NCBI RefSeq assembly: GCF_963676685.1
Contig: NC_092347.1
Coordinates: 73,718,001 to 73,782,000 of the forward strand
Length of the DNA: 64,000 nucleotides
Direction of reading: 5' to 3'
Source of the DNA: Mytilus edulis
Lineage: Eukaryota
Each line of letters begins with the position of its first letter. Position 1 is the stretch's first letter. Below, piece after piece: positions 23,773 through 58,400 of the stretch. Below the pieces are notes generated by a model, which saw only the letters and a list, made by a program, of their open reading frames with translations, was not told where the DNA came from and did no database searches. The position numbers and the translations under genes were made by a program.

Positions 23773-23918
23773 TATTGGAACTATAGCCGGGTCAATTGTT
23801 GGAGGAGTGGTTGTCGTTGCTATAGTTATTGGAATCATAATTTGCTGTGTCATCACACATAAGCATCAACAAAAAAGAATAAAACAGAGACAACAACGAC
23901 AAGGAATAGTAACTATTG
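23773..23918 (+). CDS. CYYR1/Shisa-like membrane protein, exon 3 (TM helix)
   Basis: ttcag|(N)IGTIAGSIVGGVVVVAIVIGIIICCVITHKHQQKRIKQRQQRQGIVTI|gtatgt; TM, juxtamembrane CC, basic stop-transfer. Confidence 0.9.
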
Positions 23919-24671
23919 GTATGTTCTATCGTCTTATTGTTTGTATTCTTTGTTTCCTAATGAGTTCCAAAATCATTTTGACAATGATGAGCTACTTTTT
24001 AAATACCATCTTAACGCTGGATACCAATCTCCTTATGTTGGTTATTCAGTGATTAAGCACTTCTATTTGAATTTGATGCGACTGTCATGCAAGTGAGAGG
24101 TTTGGGAAGCTATAAATCCAGGTTCTACCCACCATTTTCTACATAAGAAAAGTCAGGAATATGACAGTTGATATCCATTCGTTTGATCTTTTGATTTTGA
24201 CAATTAATTATAGTAGGGACTTTCCATTATGAATTTTCCTCGGAGTTCAGTATTTTTGTGATTTTACTTTTTTCTAGCATGATACAGGAAGGTCAGCTTC
24301 CTCATAGAATACTACCGATTACAAAAAGTTTAAAAACTACCCTTATGTATATATACTCGTTAAAATTAACATTAATGATCGACCAACCAATTACGGATAT
24401 AATTCAGCTTTAATGTATCAGTGGTATTTTTCGACATGGTATATGTTGTTATAGTCGACATTGATAAAGTAAAAATCGATTTGATTCAATACAACTCTGT
24501 TGTGTATTGTTTTAATATTTTGTATGAAATTAGTAAAATATTAGATTTTATAGACATTTTTTTCATTACTCAGAGAGATAAAAAAATATATAACATCTGT
24601 ATGTTTGATAATTTCCAGATTTTTAATTTATAAATACGGTATTTCAATTATTTATATTTCTTTTAACTTAG

Positions 24672-24892
24672 TGCACACCGGTGGAATGCAAAATCACGGG
24701 ATGCCATATTCACATCCGCCACCTGACTACTCTCCTTTCGGTCCTGCAGCTGGTGGTCAGATGGGTGGGAACCCGGCATACCCACCTCCATCAACATATG
24801 GACAACCACATGGAATGCCCATGACAACAGGAGGACAGGCAACAGGAGGGATGATGACCACATCACACATGGATCCACCACCTTATAAATAG
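24672..24892 (+). CDS. CYYR1/Shisa-like membrane protein, exon 4 (Pro-rich tail with PPxY)
   Basis: ttag|(V)HTGGMQNHGMPYSHPPPDYSPF...MDPPPYK*; spliced total 178 aa. Confidence 0.88.
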
Positions 24893-25753: not shown

Positions 25754-28337
25754 AACCAGATGCTCTGCAGGGCGTAGCTTTATACGACCGCAGAGGTTGA
25801 ACCCTGAACGGTTGGGGCAAGTATGGACACAACATTCAAGCTGGATTCAGCTCTAAATTTGGATTGTGATTAAATAGTTGACACAGCATAGGTTTCTGAC
25901 ACAGAATGAATGTGTTCTAATGAACTTAAAATTTTTGTTTTCTCTTAGAGCAATTCACTATGCTGTTGAATATTAATCCTCTCAAAAAAATGTTTGAAGA
26001 AATTTTCTTTTTTATTTATGAAATTTCAAATGAGAAAAATTGAACCCAATTTTTTTAATCACATCCCCCTTTCCCTTATTCCAAAACTAATCTCAATTAA
26101 AATTTCTAATGGAGTTTGCAACAATAACTACTCATTTAAATACATCATAAAATATTAAGATGTAAAAAAACTGCTTGTTATCACTGAATGGTAAAGATTA
26201 TTTTAATTTATCAGTTGGTAGTAAAAAGTGAATATACATTGTATATTATTATACCTTACGTATATTTCAAACAATTCTATTGGGTGAAACGTAATCACGT
26301 GACATGGAATAATTCAGTTAATTTTCATTCAATTGAAGGAAGGACGAATAACCCTAAAGAATTTACACCAGCGGTGAATAACCCTATTATTCACCGGTGA
26401 ATAACCTTTTGAGTTTGTTTATTTGTACTTGAGTTACCTCCCATAAAAATGACGTCACAAACGTAAATAAACAAAATGGCAGAGTTCACGTTACACTGGG
26501 AGCCCATCAAGAGACGAGGAAATACGGCATTGGACATAGATAGAGCTGAGAGTGGCAGCAGCCGATGATGTCTCTTATAAACGGTCCTTTTCAGGGCCAT
26601 CAATATTTTACAAAAAGATTCTACTTTTGTTGTATATTCGAGAAAATCGAACACAAATGTATTTTCAAACGTCAGTTTGTGTTCGAAATGCACTTCCACT
26701 GTTAGTTCGGTATAATAAAACAATTGTGGCCCCTTAGAATCGATGAATATCCAAAATTGTCAACCCTCAAAAGTTATTTCACTTCGGGCTGCGCCCTCAA
26801 TGAAATAACCTTCTCGTGTTGACAATTTTGGATATTCACCTCTTCAACAGGCCATAATTGTATATTGTATATAACAAAGATTTAAGTTGATTCTGGACAA
26901 AGAAAGATAACTCCAATTAAAAAAAAATCTTGCTATTGCACAATATTTTGCAATTGGATATTTCTTGCTTACTATTCTGGACAAAGAAAGATAACTCTAA
27001 TTAAAAAAAAATTTGCTATTTCACAATATTGTGCAATTAGATATTTCTTGCCATTGCGCAATACTGTGCAATTGAAAAGACTTGCTATTGCACAATACTT
27101 AATATAATAATTTTAGATCCTGTTTGGACCAACTTGAAAACTGGGCCCATAATAAAAATCTAAGTACATTTTTGGATTCGGCATATCAAAGAACCCCAAG
27201 ATTTCAATTTTTGTTAAAATCAGACTAAGTTTAATTTTGGACCCTTTGGACTTTAGTGTAGACCAATTTGAAAACAGGACCAAAAATGAAGAATCTACAT
27301 ACACAGTTAGATTTGGTATATCAAAGAACCCCATTTATTCAATTTTTGATGAAATCAAACAAAGTTTAATTTTGGACCCCGATTTGGACCAACTTGAAAA
27401 CTGGGCCAATAATCAAGAATCTAAGTACATTTTTAGATTCAGCATATCAAAGAACCTAACTGATTCATTTTTTGTCAAAATCAAACTAAGTTTAATTTTG
27501 GACCCTTTGGACCTTAGTGTAGACCAATTTGAAAACGGGACCAAAAGTTAAGAATCTACATACACAGTCATGACAGTTAGATTCGGCATATCAAAGAACC
27601 CCAATTATTCAATTTTGATGAAATCAAACAAAGTTTAATTTTAAACCCTTTGGGCCCCTTATTCTGTTGGGACCAAAACTCCCAAAATCAATACCAACCT
27701 TCCTTTAATGGTCATAAACCTTGTGTTTAAATTTCATAGATTTCTATTTACTTATACTAATGTTATGGTGCGAAAACCAAGAAAAATGCTTATTTGGGTC
27801 CCTTTTTGGCCCCTAATTCCTAAACTGTTGGGACCTTAACTCCCAAAATCAATACCAACCTTCCTTTTGTAGTCATTAACATTGTGTTTAAATTTCATTG
27901 ATTTCTATTTACTTAAACTAAAGTTATTGTGCGAAAACCAAGAATAATGCTTATTTGGGCCCTTTTTTGGCCCCTAATTCCTAAACTGTTGAAACCAAAA
28001 CTCCCAAAATCAATCCCAACCGTTCTTTTGTGGTCATAAACCTTGTGTCAAAATTTCATAGATTTCTATTAACTTAAACTAAAGTTATAGTGCGAAAACC
28101 AAGAAAATGCTTATTTGGGCCCTTTTTGGCCCCTAATTCCTAAAATGTTGGGACCAAAACTCCCAAAATCAATACCAACCTTCCTTTTGTGGTCATAAAC
28201 CTTGTGTTAAAATTTCATAGATTTCCATTCACTTTTACTAAAGTTAGAGTGCGAAAACTAAAAGTATTCGGACGACGACGACGCCAACGTGATAGCAATA
28301 TACGACGAAAAATTTTTCAAATTTTGCGGTCGTATAA
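25754..28337 (-). mobile_element. HINE-like element, same family as 14788-16126, reverse orientation
   Basis: Reverse complement of the 3' hairpin (CCAGATGCTCTGCAGGGCGTAGC), (GAC)n microsatellite near 28272, internal ~180-bp repeats. Confidence 0.8.
26248..26866. mobile_element. 619-bp insertion with terminal long hairpin, inside the HINE-like element
   Basis: Absent from the related copy at ~15600-15630; direct repeat ATTGTATATT (26238-26247, 26857-26866); hairpin ~26720-26861; TTATTATACC inverted at ~26709-26718. Confidence 0.75.
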
Positions 28338-34428: not shown

Positions 34429-34811
34429 TTAACTTTCTGTCGGCTCAGGTGAGACAATCACCTGAATTACATTGTTCTTTGGAATTTTTGCATCTTCAAT
34501 GCGTATTTTATCAGACAACAACCGTCCAGAATAAAACCATCTTTGTCTTGATGGTGGGACACCTTCTTCCTCCGACAATCGGAGTTTAAGTTTCATCACA
34601 GTATCAGAAGTCCTCACATAGAGTTTGATATCTTTAGTATGATTTGATAGTCTGAATTTGAGAGGGATTTCCAGCCCTGGTGAAGCATTCTCTGAGTCCA
34701 GCCCAGCATCACTTTCACTTGTCTCTTCTAGTAAGTTTGTTGGAGCACTTAAGGTGTAGACAGGAAGTTGGTATCTGTTCCCCAACTCATCATAACTGTC
34801 CATCAATGTTC
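34429..34811 (-). CDS. UBTD2: Ubiquitin domain-containing protein UBTD1/2, exon 3 (ubiquitin-like domain)
   Basis: (G)TLMDSYDELGNRYQLPVYTLSAPTNL...RQRWFYSGRLLSDK..IQVIVS. Confidence 0.93.
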
Positions 34812-35474
34812 CTGTTATAGAAAAATATATTTTATACATGTAAAACAATTTTTTTTTTTAGTTTTGAAAACATGTTTACGGTAAACAAAATGATGTTTAC
34901 TCCGATATTGAACTTAGTCAATTTTTGTGTATGTTCAACTTCTTTAGTTTCTTAGTAAGAATATTCTTTTATTTGCAGCATATTTGTTTAACCCTCTGTG
35001 TTGCCCTCTACATGTTTGTTGCCTGTTTTTGTTCTTGAGTGGTGCTATCTCATTAACCTCTGTCCCACATCTCCTACCATTTGTATATATACATGTAATA
35101 TCAATATGTTAATATATTGTCGGATTATTTGGTTAATCAGTTATGAGTGAAAACTTTTATATATCTCATAAACTTCATGTACATGTATGTGATCATTTGA
35201 TAAAATATTTTACAACTTGGATAGACAAAGATGACTGAGACCAAGTTTGGTTATATTTGGCACAGTTGTTTCAGAGCAGAAAAAAAGATTTATAGACAAC
35301 AAAGCGCCAAGTAATAAAAATAGATAACTGTTCTTGGCCTTCCCCCCCCCCCCCCCCCCAAAAAAAAAACAACCCAAAAAATCATATCTGAGTTACATCT
35401 TAACTTGTTTAATATAGGAATTCATAAAAAGTTAAATATAGGTTAAACTTGATATCATAAACAAGATAGATTAC

Positions 35475-35711
35475 CATGCGGTAAGGATATGTTAGCACCA
35501 TCTATTATTGCCTGAGCTAAACCATGGTCCCCTGTCTCTAATGCATATGCAGCAGCTTTTAAAGCATCCCATATTTCTTTTCTGCCTTCAAATGCTGGTG
35601 CTGTGTCCCAAAACTCTTCTCTCTTACTTCGAAGCTGTGTTTCTGTCAGTGGAATGTCACTTTTCCATTTGGGTTTTTCAGGTTTCAATGGTTGATTTCT
35701 TCCAATTGAAA
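35475..35711 (-). CDS. UBTD2: UBTD1/2, exon 2
   Basis: (V)[54 protein letters not shown], hallmark UBTD sequence. Confidence 0.95.
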
Positions 35712-37796
35712 CTATAAACAAGAAAAAATAAATTAAATATACCAAAACTACTTTTACATCTGACTTTGTCATCACCAAAATCATTTGAATTCATGTAGAC
35801 ATTCATAAGAGTGCAGGTCAATAACTCAACCTCATTTCATTTATATTATAATCATGCACTCATATACAAAGTTACTTACATGTAGTAGTATAGAGGCCTT
35901 CACAGGGTTTATGTTTGATGTGAGAAAACTAAAGAACTGAAACAAGAGGCTATCAGGGTGAAAGCAAACAAGATTTTCCTGCATGAAATTCCCATGAATA
36001 TGATATTTGTAAATCTGGACCCTCAAATAAGATCAACTAGTACAAAAATAAATGAATTTTGGTAGGGTTCACCAGCGGCAGATCCAGAACTTCATAAGAG
36101 GGGGCCCACTGACTGACCTAAGAGGGCCAGCTTCCGTCATGCTTCACTGATTCCCCATACTAACCAAATTTTTCCCACAAAAAAGGCCCCTCCCTGGATC
36201 TACATATATTAAAAATTGGGAAGGTTAAAATCCATCGAAATTTCATTTTTCCCTACATAAAGGTCTACAACTCAACAACAATAAAAGCTAAAATAGTAAA
36301 AAATGATTTTGAACTTTATTTTGTCAAAGGAAACAACATATCTAAATTTGAAAATATTTCTTAAAAGCATTTTTAAGTCATTACACAGACAATATCACTT
36401 TTTGTTTCTTAAAGGTCTATATTTAAATCAACAAAGGTAAAAACATAAGTTAAATTGTCAGAAGCATGTCAGAAAATGGAGCTTGACCTTCATTTATTCA
36501 CAGGAAACAACACATCTAAATTATTAAAAAAATCACACTTTTTCGCTACTGAAAGGTCTACTGTGATGTTAACTCCACAACCATAAAACCTAAAATCGTC
36601 AAAATTGAACTTTCATTTAGTCACTGTTAACAACATATCTAAACACTGTTTGCCAGCTGCCCGCCTGGATGCCTGCCTCCAAACATACATACATCCCCAA
36701 ATCAAAACCAACAGAATTATTCAAGGAAAACCATGATGTGTACAATCTTCCAGAGATACGCATATGAAACAAATAAGGAATAGAATTAGTAATACACACA
36801 CCTCGGAGAAATCTACTTCTGACAAAGTTATACACAAGCACAATATTTCATCTTGTCCAGTGAACAATTATGAGATGGTTTAATTTTACTTCACTAACTT
36901 GCCCTGAGCAGATTTTTTCTTGCCTACCGGCAAGCATGGCAGAACTTAATTCCAATCTTGGATAATAAGACAAAAAAACAGTTGTACAAATCAGAACTTT
37001 CGAATTTTGCGAGAGCACTGGAAGGACATCATCTACATGTACATAGTGGAACTTTGAGTTAAAGGATAATGCTTACTTCCTTCATTCATCCCTAGAAGTC
37101 AGCCTCATATGAATAAAGGAACCAGTTGGCAAAAAGAGGAGCATTATTGGTTCCCTTGGGATTGCCGATTGATTGTAGAAAAACCTATCAATCATGATCA
37201 ACTTTTATGAATAATTATTGATAATTACAATTAAATTTTCACTCATTAATGCTAAAGCAATCTTTTTACCTGTAAACAAGATTACCAGCAGATGCTAACA
37301 TACACCTCATTAACCTGTAAATGCTCTAATAGACGGTAAGACCAATTTTACTACTTTAAGTCAAGAATTTAAAATGTCACATGTGTAAATGTTGGTACCG
37401 TAACAGAAATATCATTGAAGTCCTATTTGGTCACCAGATGAAAAATTGCAGTTTGTGACAATCGTAAAGCAGAATTCAGCCCCTGGTTGTAAACAATGTG
37501 GCCAAGTGTTCATCTATTTATGCATTATGGACAGGAAGTATTTCAAGATTTTTTACACACTGACACTGTCATCTTTTTTTATATCAAATTTAAGAAAAAA
37601 TTAAGCTAATATAGAAGAAAATAAGAATAAGGTCGTTCAAATTACAAGTTCATTCATATTAAAACTCATTTTAATCTTAATAAAAACAACTGCCTAGTTT
37701 ACATAGTAATGGATATACAAAGTAATCAGCTGATCACAGGAAATGACCGGGGTGATTTTAGTTTTTGTTCAATAACCCCCACCCAACTCCCACTAC

Positions 37797-38394: not shown

Positions 38395-39746
38395 TTAAAA
38401 TTGAGAATGGAAATGGGGAATGTGTCAAAGAGACAACAACCCGCCCAAATAAAAAACAACAGCAGAGGGTCACCAACAGGTCTTCAATGTAGCGAGAAAT
38501 TCCCGCACCCGGAGGCGTCCTTCAGCTGGCCCCTAAACAAATATATACTAGTCCAGTGATAATGAACGCCATACTAATTTTCAAATTGTACACAAGAAAC
38601 TAAAATTAAAATAATACAAGACTAACAAAGGCCAGAGGCTCCTGACTTGGGACAGGCGCAAAAATGCGGCGGGGTTAAACATGTTTGTGAGATCTCAACC
38701 CTCCCCCTATACCTCTAACCAATGTAGTAAAGTAAACGCATAACAATACGCACATTAAAATTCAGTTCAAGAGAAATCCGAGTCTGATGTCAGAAGATGT
38801 AACCAAAGAAAATAAACAAAATGACAATAATACATAAATAACAACAGACTACTAGCAGTTAACTGACATGCCAGCTCCAGACTTCAACTAAACTGACTGA
38901 AAGATTATGATTTCATCATATGAACATCAGGCACAATCCTTCCCGTTAGGGGTTTAGTATCATACCATCATAACATATATGAGAAGAACATAACCCGTGT
39001 CATGCCAACAACTGTTTTTAGAATAAATGTGTTTAGTTCCGATGCAAAGACCTTATCAGTGACTCAATATTAACGCCAAAATATGCAATCTTTAATGACT
39101 TGACAACAGTATCATAATTATATCCCTTCTTAATAAGTCTATTCAAAGGTTTTGTAAGTTTCTGAGGTGAATACTGACACCTTTGTGCTTTATAAAGAAT
39201 ATTACCATAAAAAATTGGATGTGAAATACCTGAACGTATTAGCAGTCTGCATGTTGAGCTATATTTACGAATGATGTCTTTATACCGATGATAAAATTTA
39301 GTAAATGTTTTGACTAGTTTGTGATATCGAAAACCCTGGTGTAATAATTTTTCAGTAATACATAAATTTCTCTCGTTAAAATCTAAAACATTGTTGCATA
39401 CACGAGCGAATCGTACAAGTTGAGATATATAAACACCGTAAGATGGTGACAAGGGAACGTCACCATCTAAAAACGGATAATTAACGATAGGAAATGAAAA
39501 ATCATCCCTTTTATCATAAATTTTAGTATTCAGCTTTCCATTAGTGATATAGATATCAAGATCGAGAAAAGGGCAGTGGTCATTGTTAGTATTAGCTTTA
39601 TTTAAAGTAAGGTCAACAGGATAAATTTCATTAATATACATACTGAAGTCGTCATTATTGAGAGCCAAAATATCATCCAAATATCTAAAAGTATTATTAA
39701 ATTTGTTTATCAGATGTTGTTTCGATGGGTCTTTGCATCGACACAA
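38395..39746 (-). mobile_element. 5'-truncated Penelope-like retroelement (RT C-half open 39033-39746, plus 3' terminal region)
   Basis: FRYLDDIL catalytic motif, PFLDLDI, IYDKRDDFSFPIVNYPFL, YGVYISQLVRFAR; no stops in 237 codons. Confidence 0.9.
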
Positions 39747-42129
39747 AAATCAGGCAAAAAAAACCAAACGTTTTTATATATGATGCATGAAAAGTTTATA
39801 GACAAATTTCAACAAAAAGTTATAAAATCCTTGAATTGGCCCTGGGAATTGTAATATATATGTTCCTGATTGGCCATATAAAAAATAACTATAAAGCCGT
39901 CACTGAGTATTTTGCTATTGCTGTTCTATAAATGGAAGATAGACAAAGACTTGCAAATCATAGCAATTGAGGACACTTGCTTCCTTTAAACTTATGATGA
40001 GCACAAAAATATATTTACACTAGGGTATTGTTGCACATAGATTCACATTATAATGTGCCCATGGTTAACCGTTAAGCCTTATCATTGGTAAGACACCTAA
40101 GAACCCAACAGACAGGCTTTGAGTTATTTTCTAATAATGACGTTTTCTTCATCCTCTTGTCCTCATTTTTTTTTATTTGTATGACGCAGACTTTTTGAAG
40201 TTGGTTTCAAGAAGAATAAAAATATGCTATGGCCATTCTTTATCGTCGTTTTCCGCTATATACTAGTATATCTTTTCAAAATTGAACTAATCATATCTGA
40301 CTTTTTTTTTTATCCATATCTGACTAGCTTTTTGAACAAATTAAATGAATGGAAACCCTAGTGTTTAAGGAAAGATGTAATATATATAATCAATAACATT
40401 AAAGAATGAGATCCGATTCTATAATGCACAAACAAATTGTGTAAATCTAGGAAAATTAAACGTATGTACTGAGTTTAAAGAACATAAGCTCTGTCAAAAT
40501 AAAGAAGTTTCGAAAATTCAATAACGACGATTCCTGCAAGAAATCGGTCAATTGATCGGTTAAAAGATGGTCAAAGAATCGTCATTTATGGGCAATAACT
40601 CTAATGAAGAGTGTACTAACGATTTCGGTAAAATTTGACTTATTTGTAGATACTGTTTTGTTGATTTTCTTTTGCTATTTAACATGTCTATCTACGAAAT
40701 GTAAGTTTCCAGATAAAAGGCTAACATAAACAAATGGTAAACATCGACACTACAGAACAATCATTAAGGAGTCGATATCTGATTTAAACTTGGCTTGCTG
40801 ACAATTTTAGATTTTTTAATCTATTTTGAGTAAAATGTACTTTAATGTTTAATAAGAAAATAAACAAAAGCGCCAAAAATTGATATAAAATCGCCATCAA
40901 AGGGCATCAACTCCAATGAGGAGTCAACTAACAATTTCAGTTATTTGTAGATCTTGTCTTGTTTATCAGTTTTGCTTTAAAAAGTTACTCTTTTTTTTCT
41001 AGTTTAACTTCAGGATAATTATCTAAATTGGAAAACAAAATACGTAATCATGTCTGTTAAGAAATTGTATGACAGTTTTGATACAAATGGACAAACATTT
41101 CTGTGTATATCAGATTAAAACTATTTTCTCGATTTATAGCAGTTTTCAAGGTAATGGACATTTCTAAATTTATTTGTTACCACTATGTAACATTTAACGA
41201 ACACCAAATGATGAGCAATGCTAACTTGGCCTTTTTGAGCCAGGTGAGCCAAAAAAAAAAGAAGAAAAAAATGACCCAAGGGATAGTAAAAAAAACAGAC
41301 TGAGCAAAAAATACCCAACCAAGAATAGATTGTGATATCAAGTACCTCAAAAGGGCAAGCATAAATTTCTGCCTCACATCTTGCAATTATCGTGTTTGGT
41401 GTTTCATTGTGTTGCGTGTCACAGTCGAGGTAAATACGTAAAAAAGGTGTCTAAACAATACACCTTCTCGATTGCTTCCGTATTTATGTTGATCTGTCAA
41501 AAGAATTTGCATCGTACAAAAGTTTCATATGTTTAACATGTCCAATGAATGTAGATTGTAATTAATGCAACTATTGTTGCTAGTTCTGTTAACATTAAGG
41601 TAAAGACTCCAAAATGTCATTCTTAACCTTTGTTAAATTGTTTGGATGTTTAACACATGTGTGTTCCGCATGACATTACAGTTGACCGGAAATAGTCTAC
41701 ATACAAATGATATGATGATAATTTGTTTTTTCAATTTAAAAATTTAAAGAACTCACTTGACGTTAAGCAACCAACAATCAATAAAAGAGAACTTTGTTTT
41801 TACAAATATTTGATCACAGGTGCCTTTGCACTACACAAAAACCAAATAAAACGTTCCTATTTTTCAGTAGTGTATTGCAAACCGATTGAAACCTTGGTAC
41901 TTGGGGACCTGATGATGTTTTTAGCCCTCCACTGTTTTTTTTCCAAATCCGTGTAATACATCAAGCATTGAGACATAAGGCTGTGGGTAGTAAACTTGGA
42001 ATTGTTAGTAAATAGTAAATAAAAGATACAAAAAAATTTCCAAAATTTTCTGGCAAAATGAAAACAAACATGAATGAAGCAAATTATTTAATAGACACTA
42101 TATTCTAAGTAGAAGTCCTGCTGAGGTCT

Positions 42130-43610
42130 TTAGTCCCATTTTCCGGAACTTCCACCCCATTTTCCAGAACTTCCTCCATATTTTCCACCACCAATTCTTC
42201 CTCCAGAAGAAATACTACTACTGCTGCTACTGCTACTTTTCATCTTGATACCAGCTCCACTGCTTCCAGATAAACCACCGCCAAGACCACCTCCAAGTCC
42301 ACCACCTAGACTACCACCTAGCCCACCGCCTAGACTTCCACCTAGCCCGCCACTTAAACCACCGCCTAGATTTCCTCCTAGTCCACCACTTACACCACCG
42401 CCTAGATTGCCACTTAAGCCACCACCAGTCGATCCGCTAAGGCTTCCTTTGATCTTACCCCCTAAAGATCCATCAGTTCCTCCGGTAAGGCCACCTCCAA
42501 GTCCACCAGAAAGTCCACCACTAACACCACCTCCAAGTCCACCTCCAATATTTCCTCTTACACCGCCTCCTAGCCCGCCACTTAATCCACCACCAGTTGA
42601 CCCACCAAGGCTTCCTTTAATCTTACCACCTAATGATCCACCAGTTCCTCCGCTTAGGCCACCTAAAAGCCCACCACTTACACCACCTCCAAGTCCACTT
42701 GAAAGTCCACCACTTACACCACCGGACAGCCCACCTCCAAGTCCACCTCCAATATTTCCTCTTACACCGCCTCCTAGCCCGCCACTTAATCCACCATCAG
42801 TTGACCCACCAAGGCTTCCTTTGATCTTACCACCTAATGATCCACCAGTTCCTCCGGTAAGACCACCACTTACACCACCGGACAACCCACCTCTTTGTCC
42901 TCCAGAAATTCTTCCACCTAGACCACCAGAAAGACCTCCTCCTAGTCCACTAGAAATTCCACCTCCAAGACCACCAGAAAGTCCTCCTCCGAGTCCACTA
43001 GAAATTCCTCCTCCAAGTCCACCAGAACCCCCTCCCCCAACCTTGCCACTTAAACCACCGGACAGACCACCTCTTTGTCCGCCTGAAATTCCTCCTCCAA
43101 GACCCCCAGAAAGTCTTCCTCCAAGTCCACCAGAAACACCTCCTCCAACCTTGCCACTTAAACCACCGGACAGACCACCTCTTTGTCCGCCTGAAATTCC
43201 TCCTCCAAGACCCCCAGAAAGTCTTCCTCCAAGTCCTCCAGAAACACCACCTCCAACTTTGCCACTTAAACCACCGGAAAGTCCTCCTCCAAGACCACCT
43301 CCAAGTCCACTTGAAAGTCCACCACTTAAACCACCGGACAGGCCACCTCCATTTCCACTGGACAGTCCTCCTCCTAGACCTCCAGAAAGTCCTCCTCCGA
43401 GTCCACTAGAAATTCCTCCTCCAACATTGCTACTTAAACCACCAGACAGTCCTCCTCCAAGGCTACCACCAAGTCCTCCTCCAAGGCTACCACCAAGTCC
43501 CCCTCCAAGGCTACCTCCAAGTCCGCCTCCAAGGCCACCACTAAGTCCGCCTCCAAGGCTACCAGAAACTCCACCTCCGATGTGACCAGACCCAGCACCA
43601 CCACCATGAC
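42130..43610 (-). CDS. Secreted Gly/Ser/Leu-rich protein A, main exon
   Basis: ttgtag|(G)HGGGAGSGHIGGGVSGSLGGGLSGGL...GGKYGGSSGKWGGSSGKWD*; open for 493 codons including the stop (ORF track shows only the distal 251). Confidence 0.9.
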
Positions 43611-44384
43611 CTACAAGTTTGGATGTTTTGTATTAGCATTTGTTGGGAAAATTACAAAAGCTGATTGTGATCACTAACATAAACACTTTTATTTGTTTTT
43701 TTATTAAATTTTTACTAATTGAATTTGTTTTAATGTTTTCCAAACTATCACTGTGATTTTAAAGTTTTTGATCTTATTTGTTATGACCTTGCAAAAAGGA
43801 GCAATAAGACTGACATGACGTGAATGTAACATCAAATGGTAGTTAACCCAAACTTCAGTGATCTCGACTTATATCATACAGCATTCAACCAAAGTGCTTG
43901 TAAGCACTGAACGGTAAAGATTGCTTCAATTTATCAGTTGGAAGTAGAATTGAATATTGCATTGGTTGTAGATTTAACAGCAATTCTAGACAAAGGAAGA
44001 TAATTCCAAATTTTTAAAGATGATTTCAACAATGACATCATTTATATTTTAAGAACAGATATTAGATTTCTGCACCTTGCAAAAGTTATGTTATTTTCTT
44101 GACAAGTGTAACATCATTTTATGCCTTGAATATCTGAGCATATATTACTCGATAAATTTCTGGAATGTTCATGGATAGGATGTATAGAATGTTATGAACA
44201 ATGCGCTATATTTTGTGTATCAAAAAGGTAGTGATCCTTGGAAAATTTAGATATCAAGTCAGTCCCATAAGATTTTGATTGCATTTCATGCAATTTTTAC
44301 CTAAAAATGATTTGGTTTCTTCTACATTGAAAACATCAGTTTTATGTTCTATTTAAGGTAAACAGCTTTATTGTTATCTCTTAC

Positions 44385-44420
44385 CATGTTTGTGACCTCC
44401 CGATCTCTTTCTTCTGTAAT
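44385..44420 (-). CDS. Gly-rich protein A, 36-nt exon with furin-type site
   Basis: ttcaacag|(D)YRRKRSGGHKH|gtaaga; phase 1-1. Confidence 0.8.
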
Positions 44421-44778
44421 CTGTTGAAAAGAAACATTTTGTAAGTTGATACTTGAAATTTTCAGATGTTTGAGTCTTTCTACAATGGGGCTACATATTT
44501 TCTTAAAATTTGTTGTTTAAACTTATTTTTTTACAAATGAATTACTATTGCATGTAAAAATGATCTACAAGTGAAACACATGAGTTAAAGGATTAGCATT
44601 ACCAGGGCTGCTTTCATGATAACTTTGACAATAACACATTCATCATAAAAAAAGAAGATGTGGTATGATTGCCAATGAGACAACTCTCCACAAGAGACCA
44701 AAATGACACAGAAATTAAAAACAATAGGTCACCGTACGGCCTTCAACATTAACTATGCTTCAAGTAATGTTTTCTCAC

Positions 44779-44884
44779 CTTGCCTGTAGTCTGGGTTGTA
44801 ATCACCAACAGACCTCTTTTTGTATGTCTCTTGTTGTGCAGAAACACAAGCAACCAAAACACACAAGGCAACTATAAACTGCAT
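44779..44884 (-). CDS. Gly-rich protein A, signal peptide/propeptide exon
   Basis: ttacag|aATG; MQFIVALCVLVACVSAQQETYKKRSVGDYNPDYRQ|gtgaga; total ~540 aa. Confidence 0.85.
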
Positions 44885-45593
44885 TCTGTAATAATAATTC
44901 ATCTATCGTTTATAAAGATTTTCTATATTTAAATGTGATATGGGAGATGTGGTATAATTGCCAATGTTAGGTTTACATTAATTGTAACATATGACTTTTT
45001 CGAACTTTCAATCAAATATCATTTAATTGTACTGTAATTCTCTGCTGCAACTTCATCTTTTTTTTTAAAGTATCTTATTGTTTCAAGTTATATGTTTATA
45101 TTGTAGTTAATATTTTCAAAATCGATGCATACACATGCATGTTGTTAAATTCTGCAATATTTGCGTTCCTTCGCCAAAAAAAAAGTTGTATTATCAAATA
45201 TCATGTCGAGAAATGAGTTTGCGGTAAGAAACATAGTACCTGAATTATCTAAAAAATATATCTGGACTGAAATAGTATGTACAATGGACACGCATTATCT
45301 AAAACTATTATGCCATATTACATATAGCTTTGGAAACACCAAAATTAAATTCTTAAATAGATATTAAAAAATAATTGTTTAGGTATTTAAAAATCAGATT
45401 CTTAGATGCAATTTTTAGACTATTTTGCCCAAAGTTGAGAAAACTTATTAAGTCTTATATCTGTGAAAATTATCGAAAACAACTTTACATACTTAGAACG
45501 GTTCTACGAAATTATTTTATCTTTTTAAACTGAATATAGTTTGAAGATTTAATTCAAATTTAACTTTTAAGAGACCGTCATGTATATAAATAC

Positions 45594-45662
45594 CTGAATA
45601 TTTTGCTGATGGGCTGTCCTCGTAGCTTATCTGACAAAGATGTTGCAGCTTCTGGTTTTATA
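45594..45662 (-). promoter_or_regulatory. Putative TATA promoter and non-coding exon 1 of protein A
   Basis: TATAAAA at 45662-45656, TCAGA initiator-like site 30 nt downstream, exon ends AATATTCAG|gtattt. Confidence 0.6.
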
Positions 45663-46017
45663 CCATTTTACCAGACTTGTTATTAATTTTTCTGCATGTA
45701 TCGTGCTCCCACTACAAGTGTTGAAATTACGGTCATGCGGAAATTAACAAACATAGGTAATTAGTAAGATGTTGTAAGATGTAAAATTTGTGTTTTGCAA
45801 CAGGAAACAATAATTACATTTTACGTTAAAATTTGTTTACTATTAATTTCAATTGTTAAAGTTGCAGACTGTAAAAAATCCCCTTTTAGTTTAGACACAC
45901 TTTAAAAGTAGGTTTTTGCTACCCTAGACGAATTGGAAACATACACGTACAATACTACTGCATTTAACTCATAATTAATTACAAAGAATAACCAAACGCC
46001 TTTTCAGAAGTTTTCAC

Positions 46018-46068
46018 TTTAAAAACAGGAGTAGTAGCAGCACATTGTCAACACGGTCTAATATTAAG
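46018..46068 (+). promoter_or_regulatory. Putative promoter and short non-coding exon 1 of protein B
   Basis: TTTAAAAA at 46018, TCA ~31 nt downstream, exon ends AATATTAAG|gtaagt (consensus donor). Confidence 0.5.
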
Positions 46069-46963
46069 GTAAGTTTAGGATTTACAAATCTTAACATAAT
46101 TTCATTTTATGCAATTATTTTAAACTTTTTTAATATAAAGAAAACACAATATTGTCAAACGAAAATATAGTTCTTAGTTTAAAAATCCACGAAGCAGCTG
46201 ATGTTATGATATACAGTTGTAATTTTTTTTCTTTCAATTAGATGAAGTATTAATTATTTGCAAATGAAAATCAAACAAACAGTCAATTAACGACAGAATA
46301 CCACAAGGCACCGATCATTCACCGTTGTACGTAAGGGACATGTGTTTTTGAATATCTTGAGAGATAAAAAAAAAATTGGTTTTGATCGAAAAAAAAAAGT
46401 AGAAAAATAAATTCAGCTTCAATAAAAAAAAAAAGAAGCTTGTTCCTATATTTTTTTTTAAAAAAATTGACTGAAAGTCCCGAGTATATATATGAATGAT
46501 CGATGTCTTATTGTGGCTTGATTTACCATATGACTATATAACTGTTCAATAACTATACACTTTTGGTGGGAAAACACAAGAGCTGGCCAGCTGACGATCT
46601 AATTCAAATAACTCGAAATTGTTTCGGAAGGAGAGCTTTCCGAAAGAAGTTTTCAAGTTTTTCTTACCAATTAAAATTTCCAGAATTCATCTCAGTTTTA
46701 GATGTACTGTATTTTTATTTGAACTTCTAAACAATAACAAAACTACTGATAGAAAATGGAACAGAAGCAAATATAAGACGCGGAATTATGAAAAAATAAA
46801 TCATATTGAAAAGCAATATTCTACACATAGCTCATTGTAAATATCTGATCATTAATTGTACTTTAGTTTCCTGTCTTAACGAGAGAGAGATTAAACAAAA
46901 CATAAACTTTTTTGTTTTAAGATTTAACTGATGAACCACTTCTTCTTTTTATATATATATAGG

Positions 46964-47027
46964 ATGAACATGCTTGCTGCTTTCAGTATTTTACTATTTT
47001 GTGGTTGTGGCCCAGCTTCTGGTTATG
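46964..47027 (+). CDS. Secreted Gly/Ser-rich protein B, signal peptide exon
   Basis: tatag|gATG; MNMLAAFSILLFCGCGPASGY|gtaggt; phase 1 fits the 48655 exon. Confidence 0.78.
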
Positions 47028-47787
47028 GTAGGTATACATGTAATACCTTATCAATTGCACCTAGTTATTTATGTCAAAAAGAAGTAGACCCTCAAAAGGG
47101 CTTCAAAATGGTTAGTGCCAGGGGAAGAAAAGGGGGAGGGGGTGTAACACGATTTGTTTATTATATAGTTCGAATGAATTATTTTAACAGCATTTCGGAG
47201 AGATCCGTTAAGAACGTGCTCTATTTACTTAGGTCATACCCGATACGTCCTTTTAACAACTTGTTTGTCCATTTCCTCCACCAGCACGACAGACCCTTCA
47301 CTTGCATATGCATGAAATATTTGTTTAAGCAATCGATATAAGCTGTCCCATTTAGGTATCAGTCAGATTGTGATTGTGATACTTAATTTCAAAACTTTCA
47401 AAAATTATAAAATGATAAAACAAAACCAAAAACGTTGGTGACAACTTGGAAAAGGAGAATGGTCACTTTGTGGTTGTGGCCCATCTTCTGGTTATGGTAG
47501 GTATACATTTAATACGTTATCACTTGCACCTAGTTATTTATGCCAAAAAGAATTAATCTTATGACCACAAAAACATGCTATAGAAGATACAAAAGGATTA
47601 TCCGAAGTGAAAGCTTCAAGGACAGGCAACACTATGAAAATATGTATAGAAACCCAATAAAACTAAAATTTTAATAACTAGAACCCCGAACAAACAAGAG
47701 GGAACAAGGTGGCCTTTGAACAATAAACAATTTCTGTTCTTCTAGTAGTACAAACAATCGGGTTAAACGTCGAAAGGGATGGAAGTA

Positions 47788-48012
47788 AGGGACGACATCA
47801 AAAGTTCAATGTAGGATAAAAACTTAATTCACATAGTTTTTTCACTGACCCACCCCCCCTCTTAACTTAATTTGGGAAAAATTGATTTACCAATAGGGAT
47901 ATATGTAAAAATCGATTTTATATATACAAAACTTGCAGAATATTAACCCCCCCCACCCCAAACTATTTGATTTAATTTTTTTATCCTACATCGATCTTTT
48001 GATGTCATCCTT
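47788..48012. mobile_element. MITE (truncated second copy ~51428-51608)
   Basis: TIR AGGGACGACATCAAAAG..ATGTAGGATAAAAA / TTTTTATCCTACAT..CTTTTGATGTCATCCT. Confidence 0.8.
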
Positions 48013-48073
48013 AAGTATGAATTGTGACTACGACAAGAAGACAATACATCTATATTTATCTACATCTAATTGT

Positions 48074-48228
48074 GCATGTACCAAGACAGGCTACAAAGAC
48101 CATGTGTTGTTAGTCCTTCTGCATGTATCAAGTCAGGCTACAAGGACCATGTGTTGTTAGTCCTTTTGCATGTACCAAGTCAGGCTACAAGGAACATGTG
48201 TTGTTAGTCCTTCTGCATGTATCAAGTC
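48074..48228. repeat. 47-bp minisatellite, ~3.3 copies
   Basis: GCATGTACCAAGTCAGGCTACAAGGACCATGTGTTGTTAGTCCTTCT repeated. Confidence 0.85.
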
Positions 48229-48654
48229 TCACTAATATTAGGATTTGTGTATTGTTGATTGGATATAAACTTCACCAAAAACTACATTAACCAAAAACTT
48301 TAACAGGAAGCTAAACAGACTGACGCATGGCTAACAGACGCATAGACCGAAAAGACATAATACCCCTAGATGGGGCATAAAAAAACTTTGCTACCGCTCA
48401 ACCGTATGATACATTGAATTAAAACCCCCATACTATATGATTTTGTTAACTATCATGCATAATTTTCTGTACCTTATGTTTTTATTTTTGTAAAATATTC
48501 CTTCAGGAATAAATCAAATTTTTTATCCCCCCTCTTTTTTGGGGTTATATAAGGTCCTGATTGACATAAGACAACTTTCATTATGATAGCAATAAGATTT
48601 GCCTGCCGGTAAAGTCCAAATAAATATCACCTGATTTTCTTAATTGTTTGATAG

Positions 48655-50546
48655 CAACTGGTAAAAGACATGCTTGCGATGATGACTGTGGAGGTAATGC
48701 AAACCATGGCATTGGATTGGGAGGTGGAGTTGGTGGCAAAATTGGTGGATCCTTTAGTAGCAAATTCAAATCCAGCTTCAGTTCATCGAGTGGTGGATCA
48801 TCAAACATGGGTATAGGCAGCGGATCAGGCTTGGGTATAGGCGGTGGAGTTGGATTAAGCACTGGTGGGGGCTTATCAAACGCGATGTCAAGCTCAGGTG
48901 TAAGCGGAGGAATTGGAATCGGCTCTGGCGGTGGCTTATCAAGCTCGATGTCAAGCTCACATGTAGGCGGTGGAGTTGGATTCAGCTCTGGTGGTGGTTC
49001 ATCACACTCGATGACAAGCTCAGGTGTCAGTGGTGGAGTTGGATTCGGTGCTAGTGGTGGGTTATCAAACTCGATGTCTAGTGGAATTGGTATAAAAATG
49101 AAGAGTGGATTTTCTCAAGGTGGTAGTGTTGGACTGAGAGGACGCGTAGGAATGAGAACTGGAGTTGGTGGTGGGATTGGTAGTAGTGGTAGTATAGGTG
49201 TGGGCGGTGCAGGTGGTATTTCTGGTGCTAGTGTTGGAGGTGCATCAGCTGGTGGTATCTCAAAAGTCAGTGTTGGTAGCAGTGGATCATTTGGTGGAAA
49301 TATCGGTGGAGGCATTGGTATGAAAGTCAATACTGGCCATTCAGGTGTAAACAGAGTGGGGATGACTGGCAGTGGTGGCATAGGCGGAGGAGCATCTGGC
49401 TCAGTTAGTGGAAATTTAGCTGGAAGTATCTCTAGATCTGGTAGTGATAACGATCAAAATGGTTCAGTCGGTGGTAATGGTAACGATGATGATAATGGAA
49501 ATGGTGGTGAAACAGTAATGGCTATTTCTGGTGGAAATAATGGTGAAACACGATTGGGAATTTCTGGTGGAAGTGGTGGTGAAACAAGAATAGGAATTTC
49601 TGGTGGGAGTGGTGGTCAAACAAAAATTGGCATTTCTGGTTCTAGTTCCGGTGCAGATAACAATAACGGGGCTGTAGGTGTTAATGTAAAATCCTCACAG
49701 ACAAGCAGTGGTACGAGTGGCGTAAGTGGAATAAGAATGAGTATACAAACTGGAGGTTCTGGTGGAAGCAACGGTGCCGCTGGTGTGGGTATGTCTGGTA
49801 ATGGAGGTTCTCAGATTGCCAGCAGTGTTGGTGGTTCTGGTGGAAGCAGCGGTGTCGCTGGTAATGGAGTTGCTCAGATTGGTGGCAGTGTCGGTGGTTC
49901 TTCTGGTATTTCATCCAGTCTTTCACATTCTGGTTCTGCTGGTGTCAGTCAAGGAGGATTACAGGTTACACAAGATTCTGGAATATCTGGTAACATCGGC
50001 GGTGGAGTAGATGGAAGTGTTATCGGTGCTGGATCTTCTGGGTTAGGTAGTAGTACTAGCAAATCTGCGACTATCAGAGGACGGGTTGGGGAAGATATTG
50101 GGATAAAGATAAAATCTGGTGTTTCTGGAGGCAACATGGGTGTAGCTGGTGGTAGCGTTCGAGGTGGTGGTACTTCGGCATTTTCCAGTTCTAGCAGTGT
50201 AGATGGTGGTAGCTCATTTGGGTCAAGTTTAGCACAGACTGGCGGTACAGGGTCTGGAATCAACGTAAAAACAGGCATTTCGTCAAGTGGAGGTGTCCCA
50301 TCTTCTGGAGGAGCTTTAATGGGTGGTGGATCAAATGCACATAGCAGCTCTTTTGCAAAAGGTTCTAGTTCGTCAAAGTCAAGTGCAAAGTCAAGTTCAA
50401 GTTCCAATAGCAGTGGTTCAAGTTTTAGTTCCAGTTTTAGCAGCAGTATTGGTGGTAGTGCTGCAGGTGGGGCCAAGTTAGGAGGTGGAGGAAAATGGGG
50501 TGGAAGTTCTGGGAAATGGAATGGAAAATATAAAGAAAATGCGTAA
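48655..50546 (+). CDS. Secreted Gly/Ser-rich protein B, main exon
   Basis: gatag|(A)TGKRHACDDDCGGNANHGIGLGGG...GGGKWGGSSGKWNGKYKENA*; 630 codons; AATAAA at ~50561; total ~651 aa. Confidence 0.92.
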
Positions 50547-53818: not shown

Positions 53819-55460
53819 CTATAGGCCGTACAATGCAGGTGCATCATAATTCACAACTATTAGTTTTCCTTTCTTTAAATCAAATGCCAGCCCAAAAGGG
53901 CACCTGATTCCATCTTCAATTCCAAGCACTTTTTTTGCTTGTTTTCCATCCGACGACAATACAATTATACTATCGTTACCAGCTGAAGCAATATACACAT
54001 TTGAGTCTTTATCAACAGATACCCCCCGCGGAGATTGAACTAACTGATCTTTGTATTCCCACATCTTCTCTCCAGTCAACGAGCAGCATGTTACTGTGTG
54101 GTGTGAGTTATTGGTATAGTAGATCTTTTCTTTCAATGTTGCTACATAACTCCAATGTGGCAAGGTGTGGTCTTTTACCAAAGTAGAAGAGCAATTACCT
54201 GACATATTTACTTTCTGAATACCTGTGCCATACTCAAAGTATAACAAATAGCCATCTGAATAACATAAACCGAAGCAAGCATTGTTCGTGCTTATTTTGC
54301 GTTCAATTGTTTCAGTTAAAACGTTAATAATTTGTAATTGTTTCGATGCAGCAAATGTTACAGCGACTATCTTGTTATCCACACAGGCACAATCTACCGG
54401 AAGTGGAGTCGATAGAGGTATGCGACGCTTCAAGGTTCCATCTACCTTTAAAATCATAAGACGTTGATAGCCGTATTCTATCAGAACGATTTCTCCTGTA
54501 CTAGAAATTGAACAACCAGTGGTATAAAAACAATCAAATTTACATTGTAATTTCATTGTTATATCATCGATAGTTTTAGATGACACGTGTTCTAATGACA
54601 TTGTCTGTGCTTGTGTTGCTTTCCCAATCTGCACTTCTACCAATGGAGAGCTCAATTCGATGGATATTGTACCTAGTGAAGTAACAGTTGACATTACGTC
54701 GGTTATTTTGTTCTCAATTTTACAGTTTATATCCATCTTCTGTAAACTTTCATCATCGAATAAAGACTGCATGAATATTTCAACTTTTTTAATTCTGTTT
54801 CAATCATCTTACTACCTAGAAATGCTTGAAGGTCTGATGCATATTCTTTGATTGTTGAAATATCATTTTCCATTGAATTAACTTTTTCTGCATTTTCAGC
54901 AAGCTTTCCCAGCAAGTCCTCAGTTTGTGATTTAACTTTCGTTTCCGCAGCATATAAATCCTGAAGTATTTGTTGTTCTAGGTAGTCAAGGTAATTGTTA
55001 ATTTTAATACGGACGTGTTTTATTTCATCGTTAAATTTATGCTTTTGTTTCTGAATTTCAAAAAGATTTTGTTTTCGATCTTTAACAGCTCTATCGATAT
55101 TCAGTTTGATATCTTTCAGATTTTGATCAAGACTTTCCAATAAGACTGAAGTCTTTGCTGTTTGTATGACATTCTCCAGCGATAATATCCCAACACATTC
55201 AGCATGGTAAGACTGAATACATAGTGGACAACAGACATTTTCATGTTGGGGACAATAATTCTGGAATTTTCTGTCATGCTGTTGACAGTGTTGTGATATA
55301 TTAGTGATTGACGGTGGTAATTGTTTGTAGTTGTCGACAGATATAACTCCATGGTTACGTGAGGATTTGGATGCACTGTGATGCTTTAGACATGGGGAAC
55401 ACAGTCCTTCATCACATTCAGGGCACCAATAGTCAGCATTTGGAGATGGTATGGTATTGG
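53819..55460 (-). pseudogene. RING-less TRIM-like gene (B-boxes, coiled coil, NHL-type propeller), frameshifted and lacking an evident start
   Basis: ADYWCPECDEGLCSPCLKHH..H, HCQQHDRKFQNYCPQHENVCCPLCIQSYHAEC, coiled coil, then PRGVSVDKDSNVYIA / PFGLAFD; one-base shift at a T6 run ~54785-54790. Confidence 0.8.
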
Positions 55461-58400
55461 TTCAATATATTGATGTTAAAAAATGTAAAACATTCGGTGA
55501 CCTTGCAGCTGACTATAAAAAAAATATGTCCCAATAAATTTCTATATCGCACATACTAGCACATGTTTTTGCCCGATCCGACATTAACAACTCTATAAAG
55601 TCTGCTGAAAGGGAACGCCGTACAAAGAATACAGCTTCGACAAAAGTGTATCAGATTTTTGAGGGGAGAAGTATTCCTGACTCGAAAACTCTACAAATCC
55701 CCTATAATTCCACCTGATGTGACCTTTACGTAGACAGAACTTTGTAAAAAACTCAAGAGGAGGCCGATACTCAATGCCTTAAACTTTGACACGAAGTTTA
55801 TGGAAATGTAAAAATGCGAAAGAACAATCATACGGACCTCTAATACAAATGTGATTGCTCTGTGTGTTTGCTACTAAAAATATATGACACATACAAGCGA
55901 GTTGTGAGTGCAGATGAGGACAATAAGCAGTGTAAAGGATAGGCAAATATTTTAAACCATTCACTATAACTATGTGTCTGTCTTTCCTTAACAATTTGTA
56001 AACTATTGTCTGCTGTACATGAACTTACCGGAAGCGACACAACTTCGTCTTTGTTTGGAGTAGATATACAAACTGTCGACAAAACTTCGAAGGACACGCA
56101 CGGCTATTTCAGTGGTTTTTAGAGTTTCGGTAATATTGACAAAGATGAAGCCCTTGTTTGGGCATGAAAGTTAATTTCAAAGCTTTATGATAAAAAAATA
56201 TCTCTTTAAAACCGTTCCATCATAATAATTATTCAAGCTTGCCACCAGTACAGATGTAAGTTTAGTCATCTTACCTCCCTGTGAGTCGGCACTGAAATAG
56301 CATGTTTACGTACTTCGTTTCAAACTAAAAATTTGGACCGCATTACACATTGCTAAACCCGTATCCGGTCACCTTTAGAATATGGTTGAGTGAAATGATT
56401 CATTACACCCCGTGTATTTTAAAGGACATATGTCAGCAGAACTCTTGTAGGATCTTGTGTTTTCATTGAAGAGGAATATCTGCAGGTAAAAAAGTCATGT
56501 GTTTGTTCGCAACAAAGCCTTACATGTTCGGAACTTGGCTTCTGTAAAGGATAAGAATTATGTAGAAATTTCAAATCATGTTCCTTGACGGATGAACCAG
56601 AAGATACTCCTGGCATAATTCTGTTGTGTGGATCTCTTTGATTGGATTTTTGAATTGTAAATGTTTTAGAGGTATTGAGTTCTTTTTAGTTTTAATGAAT
56701 GACATGATTGAGCTTATGCAAAATACGCCGTCATTAAGTAGGCTTCAGGTAAAAATAATATTGATCATTTATTGATGAGGTTGCATGTCAGTCGGCAAGG
56801 TAACTACTGTAACTTTAACAGATTATGCGTTGATCTTGTATAATAGAAAACAAATGTTTGAAAAACGCCAATTTCCAAAATAAATTCTTATTCAGTTTTG
56901 TTTTACATTTTCCAGATAAATGATTGTCAATTGATTTGAAAAAATGTCTGTATCCGAAGTTTAACCTAAATTGTTGTATATGTCTTCAAATTTTGAAAGT
57001 ATGGAAGAAAACAAATACAAACAGAATTTGATCTTTGACCTTATTTCATGCAAAACATTCATCACATTTCTTTTTGACGACATCGATATTTAAATAGTAC
57101 TCATTTTCCCGAATCTAATGATATATAATATAGCAATATAGTATGTTTGACGATTAAATCTAAAAAATATCGGGTCTGGTCACCTTACTATTTGATGGCA
57201 TACGGTTTCATTAAATTCACACAAATAGACATATATATCTGATCTGTAGTCAAGTCCCTATGCTTGTATCTGAGTTAGAACGTCTTCCCCCGAGTTCTCA
57301 CATATATAAACACATGTTATGGGAGGAGACTAGCATAGTATTGAAAATTATTGCACTTAATTTAACCTAGTTAAAACCTACATATGAGTGTTTTAAAAAG
57401 CTATTTGAAGAAAGAAAACACCACATACCATCAAAATGTCAAACATTTATATTACACTTTGTCAGAATATAAGACTACATTGCGAAAAAAAAACCAATAA
57501 ATTATACATTGAAGACGGAAAACTACGTGTTACATTTAAGGGTTATTTTGGAACTAGTATTAGAAATTATACGTCAATTATACATTATTTGATCAAAGAG
57601 AAAATATTACTATTGATTAATAATAAATGTTCATAAATTGCCAATTTAATCTGACAGATGCAAAAATTAAGACTCTCTTCGACAAACCTAATGTTTAAAT
57701 TCCTTATATATTTAAATGCGACAATCAATTCAATGAAAAGAAAAGAAGTGGTGATAAGTTTATTAAATTCATATCCAAACTTAATTAAAAATCTTTCATG
57801 CATTTCTAGGACGAGAAAAAAATAACAATAAATACAAAAGGTAGGTTTTTGTGATAGAGTCCGTCCGAGGGGAAGGTCTGTGAAATTCGGACTGCCTTTG
57901 AAAAATAAGTGTGTATACGCGCGTTTGATGCAAATACAAACTTTCAATCCTGGTATCTATGACTAGTTTGGAAAAGGATAGTAATTTTGACTTGCATGAA
58001 AGAGTTATTTTTAAAAGCACTCTAGCGTGACGGCACTCTAAACTAGGGTTCAGTGTTAACACCCCTATTTTGCTCGGACGAAGCTGCGTATTCATATATT
58101 CTGCACAACCAGAAGGATGTTCTACTTTTACAAGGGTTTTACAGCTGTAACTAATAAAAGGCAAGTTCGATTGAATCGTTTGTCTTTGTTGAGTTGTAGA
58201 TAGAAACGAAAAGTGATACTTAAATCAATTTCGGCCTATCCCTTTCTGGTCCCCTTCATAAAATAGTTTGTTTCTTTTATTTGAACCTGTTTTGGGATCC
58301 ATTTTGGCAAATATAATTTTCATGCAGGAAATCTGGTTTGCTGTCAATTGACAGCCTCTTGTGCTTTGTTTTCCATCAATTTTGATGTTTTAGCTTCGGT

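Follow-up and report, generated by a model that had tools for sequence, protein, structure and literature searches.

A stretch of 64,000 nucleotides (nt) from Mytilus edulis (contig NC_092347.1, positions 73,718,001–73,782,000, forward strand), hereafter called the window and numbered from its first letter, contains two long Gly-rich open reading frames (ORFs) that face apart: 42130–43632 on the minus strand and 48624–50546 on the plus strand. They belong to two genes, here called A and B, and the question raised by this locus is what two such neighboring genes make. The reading that we favor, with moderate confidence, is that A and B together supply a co-regulated two-component secreted structural material that is noncollagenous and does not depend on 3,4-dihydroxyphenylalanine (DOPA). 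The pair stands out through two features, its chorion-like pairing and a strict residue lattice.

Gene models and splicing

Models of the two genes, derived from the window sequence, yield proteins of 540 residues for gene A, on the minus strand, and 651 residues for gene B, on the plus strand, each with a single terminal stop (Table 1). A preliminary description, made from the sequence of the window, had proposed two divergent spliced genes of these lengths and had set spliced transcripts as a test. Both points held, all three introns in the coding sequences being seen as joints in transcript contigs. The transcript evidence consists of contigs or reads from 4 of 24 listed sequencing runs that were placed on the window (X1, X8, X21, and X24); X1 and X8 are taken to be RNA by guess, and their contigs are spliced. 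In gene A, contigs from X1 (organism A) and X8 (organism B) cross both introns, of 358 and 774 nt, as joints. The coding intron of gene B (1627 nt) and an intron in its 5′-untranslated region (5′-UTR; 894 nt) are joints in X8 only, with GT..AG borders. All three gene B exons are carried by a single X8 contig of 2076 nt that starts at 45947, and these include a noncoding 5′-UTR exon that was absent from the preliminary model. In both genes, the ATG lies one base past an acceptor and is followed by a phase-1 intron.

Two competing frames were rejected on the same evidence. A Pro-rich antisense frame over gene A is ruled out as the gene because the joints read GT..AG on the minus strand only, and an alternative signal frame for gene B is ruled out because the X8 joint agrees with the donor at 47027. 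Within the second intron of gene B, at 47470–47545 (+), the 3′ half of the signal-peptide exon recurs in part and almost unchanged, along with its donor and ~45 nt of intron sequence. This copy has no counterpart of the ATG part, and the X8 transcript skips it.

Table 1. Features of genes A and B and of the region between them, in window positions
Feature	Positions	Strand	Coding part	Content and evidence
Gene A body exon	42130–43610	-	43610–42130	Start containing His; (G-G-L-x)n body of period 4; Ser run; K/aromatic tail repeat of 7 residues; stop; X1 and X8 contigs
Gene A tail	42133–42187	-		2.5 copies of a 21-nt (7-residue) unit, GK[YW]GGSS
Gene A micro-exon (36 nt)	44385–44420	-	44420–44385	RRKR (furin consensus) and first mature residues; flanked by joints in X1 and X8
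Gene A signal-peptide/propeptide exon	44779–44885	-	44884–44779	ATG at 44884; KKR site; hydropathy peak 3.6; joint
Predicted gene A 5′-UTR exon	45594–45632	-		Initiator-like TCAGAT, +1 at 45632, donor after 45594; prediction only
Predicted gene A TATA box	45656–45662	-		30 nt upstream of initiator
Putative shared bidirectional promoter (~315 nt)	45633–45946	.		Bounded by predicted A start and first base of B contig
Gene B 5′-UTR exon	45947–46068	+		X8 contig; GT..AG joint of 894 nt
Gene B signal-peptide exon	46963–47027	+	46964–47027	ATG at 46964; phase-1 donor; hydropathy peak 2.7
Gene B body exon	48655–50546	+	48655–50546	GKR; start with Cys, Asp, and His; Gly/Ser body in which hydrophobics show even parity; repeats of 63 nt and 36 nt; acidic patch; Ser run; tail and stop
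Gene B tail motif GKWGGSSGKW	50490–50519	+		Exact match with gene A tail

Composition and residue lattice

The chains of A and B have masses of 40 kDa and 56 kDa, respectively, and are basic in their mature form, with isoelectric points (pI) of 11.9 and 10.0. Gly makes up 48–53% of A and 31–32% of B, whereas Pro is absent from A and amounts to 0.2% in B; Met accounts for 0.4% and 2.5%, and Ala for 0.9% and 5.5%, without Ala runs. The motif GIKMKS, the Ser runs, and both tails are present as quoted in the preliminary description. The proteins end in GKWD (A) and KENA (B), and in both of them Trp is C-terminal. Predicted tryptic peptides of 7–35 residues number 13 for A and 15 for B.

The hydrophobic residues of A are placed on a lattice with the unit G-G-L-x. 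Their gaps are multiples of 4 in 98 of 101 cases (16.5 in shuffled sequences, with a maximum of 30 in 5000), and Leu, Val, or Ile occupies 99 of the 111 positions on the lattice. The hydrophobic gaps of B are even in 96 of 117 cases (51.9 in shuffles, maximum 72). Lag 3 is depleted in both bodies. Tandem repeats in the A body have a period that is a multiple of 12 nt in 21 of 21 rows, the tail has a period of 21 nt, and the repeat units in B measure 63, 126, and 36 nt. Lys or Arg adjoins a hydrophobic residue in 20 of 24 cases in A, against 9.1 in shuffles, and in 27 of 32 cases in B, against 11.2. K/R-x-K/R pairs occur four times in A (p = 0.024) and six times in B (p = 0.0045). The length variants of A listed for X1 and X8 measure 12 or 36 nt and thus keep the register of the lattice, although slippage on a 12-nt unit would equally give such lengths.

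Processing sites, termini, and the comparison with byssus

The signal peptides claimed in the preliminary description agree with the hydropathy of both N-termini (Table 1). The basic cleavage motifs described for the two proteins are likewise present (KKR and RRKR in A, the latter on the 36-nt exon, and GKR in B), but the GKR of B is a dibasic site and does not conform to the RXKR furin consensus. Directly after RRKR, the predicted mature N-terminus of A has an HxHxH cluster (His at 45, 47, 49, and 57). B has His at 27 and 39, near its N-terminus, and five more that are scattered; neither protein has a C-terminal His. There is one Tyr per mature chain, and Tyr makes up 0.9% of A and 0.3% of B.

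The preliminary description had noted the His that follow the cleavage motifs and had connected them with the metal-dependent assembly and Lys/Tyr cross-linking of byssal proteins. The His are indeed found in both proteins, but they are sparse and N-terminal, and the analogy with byssus chemistry comes out weak because there is one Tyr per mature chain and His are few, with none at the C-terminus. It is in this light that byssus-type components should be considered, whose His ends would coordinate Zn or Cu at the pH of seawater and which would form Tyr/DOPA–Lys cross-links, as in preCols and foot proteins. A and B resemble these proteins in being basic, Gly-rich, and secreted (PMC9999432, PMC7018726); basic charge is common to all foot proteins (PMC9999432), the His cluster of A directly follows a furin-type site, and Perna has a foot-specific, noncollagenous Gly-rich gene between two preCol genes (PMC7971044). 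However, only two His stand at the start of B, A and B lack a His-rich C-terminus as well as the high Tyr/DOPA content of foot proteins, and none of the listed rows of a foot-protein catalogue (Mcfp4–18 and others; PMC7018726) matches them in length, mass, and extinction coefficient. Nor do they have the Gly-X-Y collagen domain of preCols: their bodies show period 4 or even parity, Pro is near zero, Pfam gives no match, and no collagen-like ORF occurs among the 31 long ORFs of the window. We consider a byssus-type pair unlikely.

Shared tail and head-to-head layout

The longest exact match between the two proteins is the 10-residue tail GKWGGSSGKW; GIKMKS is also common to both. At the DNA level, the tails are 84% alike over 43 nt. 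A degenerate DNA pattern of the tail has three matches in the window, all within the tails of A and B, and none in each of 100 shuffles, which confirms the shared GGKWGGSSGKW-type tail of the preliminary description. Outside the tail, A and B could not be aligned by composition-corrected blastp or phmmer. The simplest reading of this kinship, based on the shared tail and the gene layout, is that A and B may be old inverted paralogues.

On the minus strand, the predicted TATA box (at 45662) is followed 30 nt later by the initiator and then by the splice donor. The combined TATA and initiator pattern has five matches in the window, three of them inside one TA run, and the joint rows listed for X1 and X8 include none for the predicted 5′-UTR exon. 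If the predicted start of gene A is right, the starts of A and B are about 315 nt apart. We applied a definition of bidirectional gene pairs that asks for opposite strands and start sites within 1000 bp. As the ATG exon of gene A begins 1062 nt from the start of the B contig, any upstream exon of gene A would bring the spacing below 1 kb. The putative shared promoter also contains, at 45878–45887 on the minus strand, a Rel/NF-κB-like site, GGGGATTTTT, which was found by eye, without a chance control.

Paralogy would also fit with A and B serving separate structures or cell types, the common tail reflecting ancestry or local gene conversion and closeness giving loose co-expression. Bodies that do not align, together with cleavage sites and exon counts that differ, are in keeping with this reading, as are the occurrence of B without A in one RNA run (X24, see below) and the 84% likeness of the tail DNA. 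On the other hand, an exact 10-residue tail and GIKMKS were retained as the bodies diverged beyond recognition, both genes occur in X1 and X8, and the predicted spacing is very short. Separate roles for the two paralogues seem to us unlikely.

Expression and sequence variation

A and B both occur in X1 and in X8, and neither body exon has depth in the raw RNA run X21. The co-expression proposed in the preliminary description agrees with these runs but not with X24, where B is seen without A. Expression therefore appears to be restricted, and its coupling not absolute. Co-regulation is better founded, given the starts about 315 nt apart (if the predicted A start is right) and the shared presence in X1 and X8 and absence from X21.

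In addition, 14 RNA-like runs of five studies hold 0.28–0.30 of the sampled words of the window. One gene alone could contribute at most 0.185 (A) or 0.235 (B), so these shares are more than either A alone or B alone could give. The RNA-like status of the 14 runs is a guess, none being recorded as RNA; the shares are possibly raised by intronic repeats, and runs with a single gene would be missing from the list, which is ordered by share. High-copy repeat pieces at 44640–44750, 47560–48310, 41750–41790, and 47300–47325 draw thousands of reads from other transcripts and inflate both depth and word shares. The repeat near 44650–44750 is presumably a Mytilus element, and a 47-nt tandem repeat lies at 48073–48228.

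Three closely similar organisms share 0.49–0.82 of the window words. Among the 40 variants listed out of 267, 36 are coding (22 residue-changing and 14 silent), and the K/W motif has no variant in this list. The organisms are so similar that these variants do not test conservation of the tail or body.

Searches for relatives

The preliminary description had recognized no family, and we likewise found none in protein collections, Pfam, the PDB, two mussel shell proteomes, or the foot-protein catalogue rows. A match to an already characterized family, named at the outset as an outcome that would count against the proposal, did not turn up. The A tail region gave no match at E ≤ 10 among 352 candidates, and the B exon gave none among 8000. 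With the A exon, 55 of 7999 candidates reached E ≤ 10; all of these contain at most 27% Gly and none has the tail motif, and they were rejected as compositional noise. The sole match of B among 1.84 billion representatives, a Tudor protein of a mite whose repeat is unrelated, was also set aside. In a phmmer control, a 70%-identical copy would score E ~1e-183 (B) or ~1e-98 (A), whereas a tail-only query overlooks even 95% copies under default filters. Exact look-ups in the protein collections found one of six sequences, from Logan only, which leaves the coverage of this animal's proteins unproven. A and B seem to be absent from the protein collections searched, and these negative results speak weakly for novelty.

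Pfam returned no family for either protein, and the PDB sequences returned no match for B. In the ESM Atlas, the best score of B was 0.77, to arthropod Gly-rich clusters and below the usable level, and A had no usable match. The tail DNA pattern had no match in viral contigs and 10 in metagenome contigs, the latter dismissed as chance because their frames (26–138 residues) lack the architecture of A and B.

None of the A and B motifs was found in the supplement of PMC5854119 (searched without a positive control), in that of PMC7971044, or in 9 of the 16 files of PMC3896809. Paper full texts also gave none, in a set that leaves out most subscription literature on periostracum, ligament, and byssus stem. 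Looser motifs matched only unrelated proteins among the matches listed for the Perna shell tables. One Perna shell protein, Unigene30013, which occurs in all four tables, has, by eye, stretches with Leu at every fourth position and a Lys-Gly-Lys-Val-Tyr end. This likeness of style would mildly favor a mantle product.

Comparison with known structural proteins

With a signal peptide, as judged by hydropathy, a Gly-rich body built of tandem repeats, and no globular domain in Pfam, A and B fit the general silk-like kind. Molluscan repetitive low-complexity and silk-like proteins, such as shematrins, KRMPs, and MSI60-like proteins (PMC3896809, PMC4944945, PMC8194122), share with them the signal peptide, the Gly-rich repetitive body, a basic–aromatic C-terminus, and lineage restriction; basic–aromatic C-tails are indeed known on Gly-rich shell proteins (PMC3896809). 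A and B differ from these families in that their tail consists of GK[WY]GGSS repeats and in that they are paired head to head. The GnY repeat domains of shematrins (PMC3896809) cannot be accommodated by one Tyr per mature chain, and the ends of A and B are not of the RKKKY/RRKKY type. KRMPs measure ~10 kDa and combine a Gly/Tyr domain with a Lys/Trp domain that directly follows the signal peptide, unlike the larger A and B with their C-terminal Trp. The poly-Ala blocks of MSI60-like proteins have no counterpart in chains this poor in Ala. The A/B pair is apparently uncharacterized, and its novelty lies at the level of the family, inside the common molluscan silk-like proteins.

The layout resembles that of silkmoth chorion A/B pairs (PMC4639761), which are divergent structural genes with a common promoter (330 nt in HcA/HcB, compared with ~315 nt predicted here) and also have a small first coding exon and one large exon. 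Chorion, however, is an insect eggshell whose far shorter proteins are encoded by dozens of clustered pairs, compared with one pair in the window, and we do not claim homology. Two structural genes driven by one short bidirectional promoter would parallel the chorion arrangement.

In style, B comes closest to the barnacle GSrCPs (PMC5099703), in which Gly/Ser low-complexity segments alternate with Lys/Arg blocks and for which amyloid-like fibers and lysyl-oxidase cross-links have been proposed. These are crustacean proteins with repeated domains of ~100–170 residues, and the available passages describe no common K/W tail or pairing. A is more like abductin (58% Gly, 1% Pro; PMC9999432) in its high Gly, its near lack of Pro, and the single hydrophobic residues that interrupt its Gly blocks. 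It differs in having Leu rather than Met/Phe, in being four times longer, and in its propeptide and K/W tail; the Met-rich GGFGGMGGGX repeat of abductin, in a mature chain of ~116 residues, is not found in A or B, both low in Met. Elastomers hold 45–60% Gly plus Pro (PMC9999432), a range that includes A and lies above B.

A proposed two-component material

In the proposed material, the short bidirectional promoter would switch on A and B together in one secretory epithelium, and a proprotein convertase would remove the short propeptides, cutting at RRKR in A and at KR in B. The basic mature chains could then condense, with the Lys/Trp tail acting as a cation–π sticker common to both. A, without Pro and with one aliphatic residue at every fourth position, may form a flexible hydrophobic network, and B, with its alternating Ile/Val/Met/Phe strands, short β-sheet stacks. 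Finally, Lys in the K-x-K blocks and tails might be oxidatively cross-linked. The split into a soft A and a β-prone B draws on the elastomer range cited previously (PMC9999432) and on the barnacle precedent (PMC5099703).

Several results weigh against this proposal. The raw RNA run X24 has ~12 reads (~1x) on B but lacks reads on A, although A:B ratios of 1–4 would predict 12–47 of them, which indicates that expression is not strictly coupled. The start site of gene A is a prediction. B tolerates change: the complete list for B in X1 contains 14 nonsynonymous and 7 synonymous changes (25% of random changes would be synonymous), a ratio of ~0.7 as calculated by hand. No relatives were found outside the three closely similar organisms. 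The A and B motifs do not occur in the shell-layer proteome tables of M. galloprovincialis or Perna viridis, in which positive controls showed that sequences are present. The M. galloprovincialis samples were inner-shell scrapings taken after NaOH treatment and searched against expressed sequence tags (PMC4517812), which places periostracum and ligament outside that proteome. The AlphaFold models are uninformative, with a mean predicted local distance difference test score of 44 for A, without structural elements, and of 32 for B, with four low-confidence strands on a 12-residue repeat.

The high charge of both chains raises the alternative of nonstructural cationic secreted proteins, antimicrobial or belonging to mucus or a coat, whose K/W tail would act on membranes or polyanions, for example chitin-associated or sulfated glycans. 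Cationic defense precursors share the high pI (10–12 here), Lys/Trp tail, and convertase-type propeptides of A and B. We nonetheless regard this as highly improbable, since chains of 40–56 kDa with a strict lattice over hundreds of residues suit a material better than a peptide antibiotic and sites for internal cleavage that would release the tail are not evident.

If A and B do form a two-component material, mantle-made organic layers (periostracum, ligament, or insoluble framework) are its leading, still tentative, site. The foot or byssus stem is a doubtful second candidate, and internal supports such as gill rods, or larval or egg structures, are each less probable again. In a bolder version of the proposal, which we think unlikely, the periostracum, the hinge ligament, or the byssus stem, as a major mussel material with as yet unsequenced proteins, would owe its main, DOPA-independent protein framework to this chorion-style cassette, with a period-4 Gly–Leu elastomer and an even-parity cross-β protein dosed from one promoter, unlocked by convertase, and coupled through a common Lys/Trp sticker. 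Ideas for tough wet biopolymers come in large part from mussel materials, whose chemistry, as far as known, centers on DOPA and His–metal bonds; A and B would represent another design, and one that is simple to make. The gene models and tryptic peptides reported here are supplied for proteins that homology searches miss.

Other features of the window

The window is AT-rich. On its minus strand, 34429–35790 contains exons of a ubiquitin-domain-containing (UBTD-like) gene, with UBD and ubiquitin matches in Pfam, and 39033–39749 contains a frame of 238 residues with a YLDD motif that resembles a reverse-transcriptase fragment of a retroelement, without a convincing Pfam match. A B-box and β-propeller (TRIM-like) gene at 53819–55461 (-) is split over two overlapping frames, which points to a frameshifted pseudogene or else to an error in the assembly. 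One repeat, probably a transposon-derived satellite, occurs in dispersed copies with similar low-quality ORFs at 15046–16583 (-) and 27156–27551 (+). Exons at 23714–24892 (+) encode a small protein that spans the membrane once; a Cys pair comes after the helix, and the tail is rich in Pro, Gly, and Met and carries PPxY motifs.

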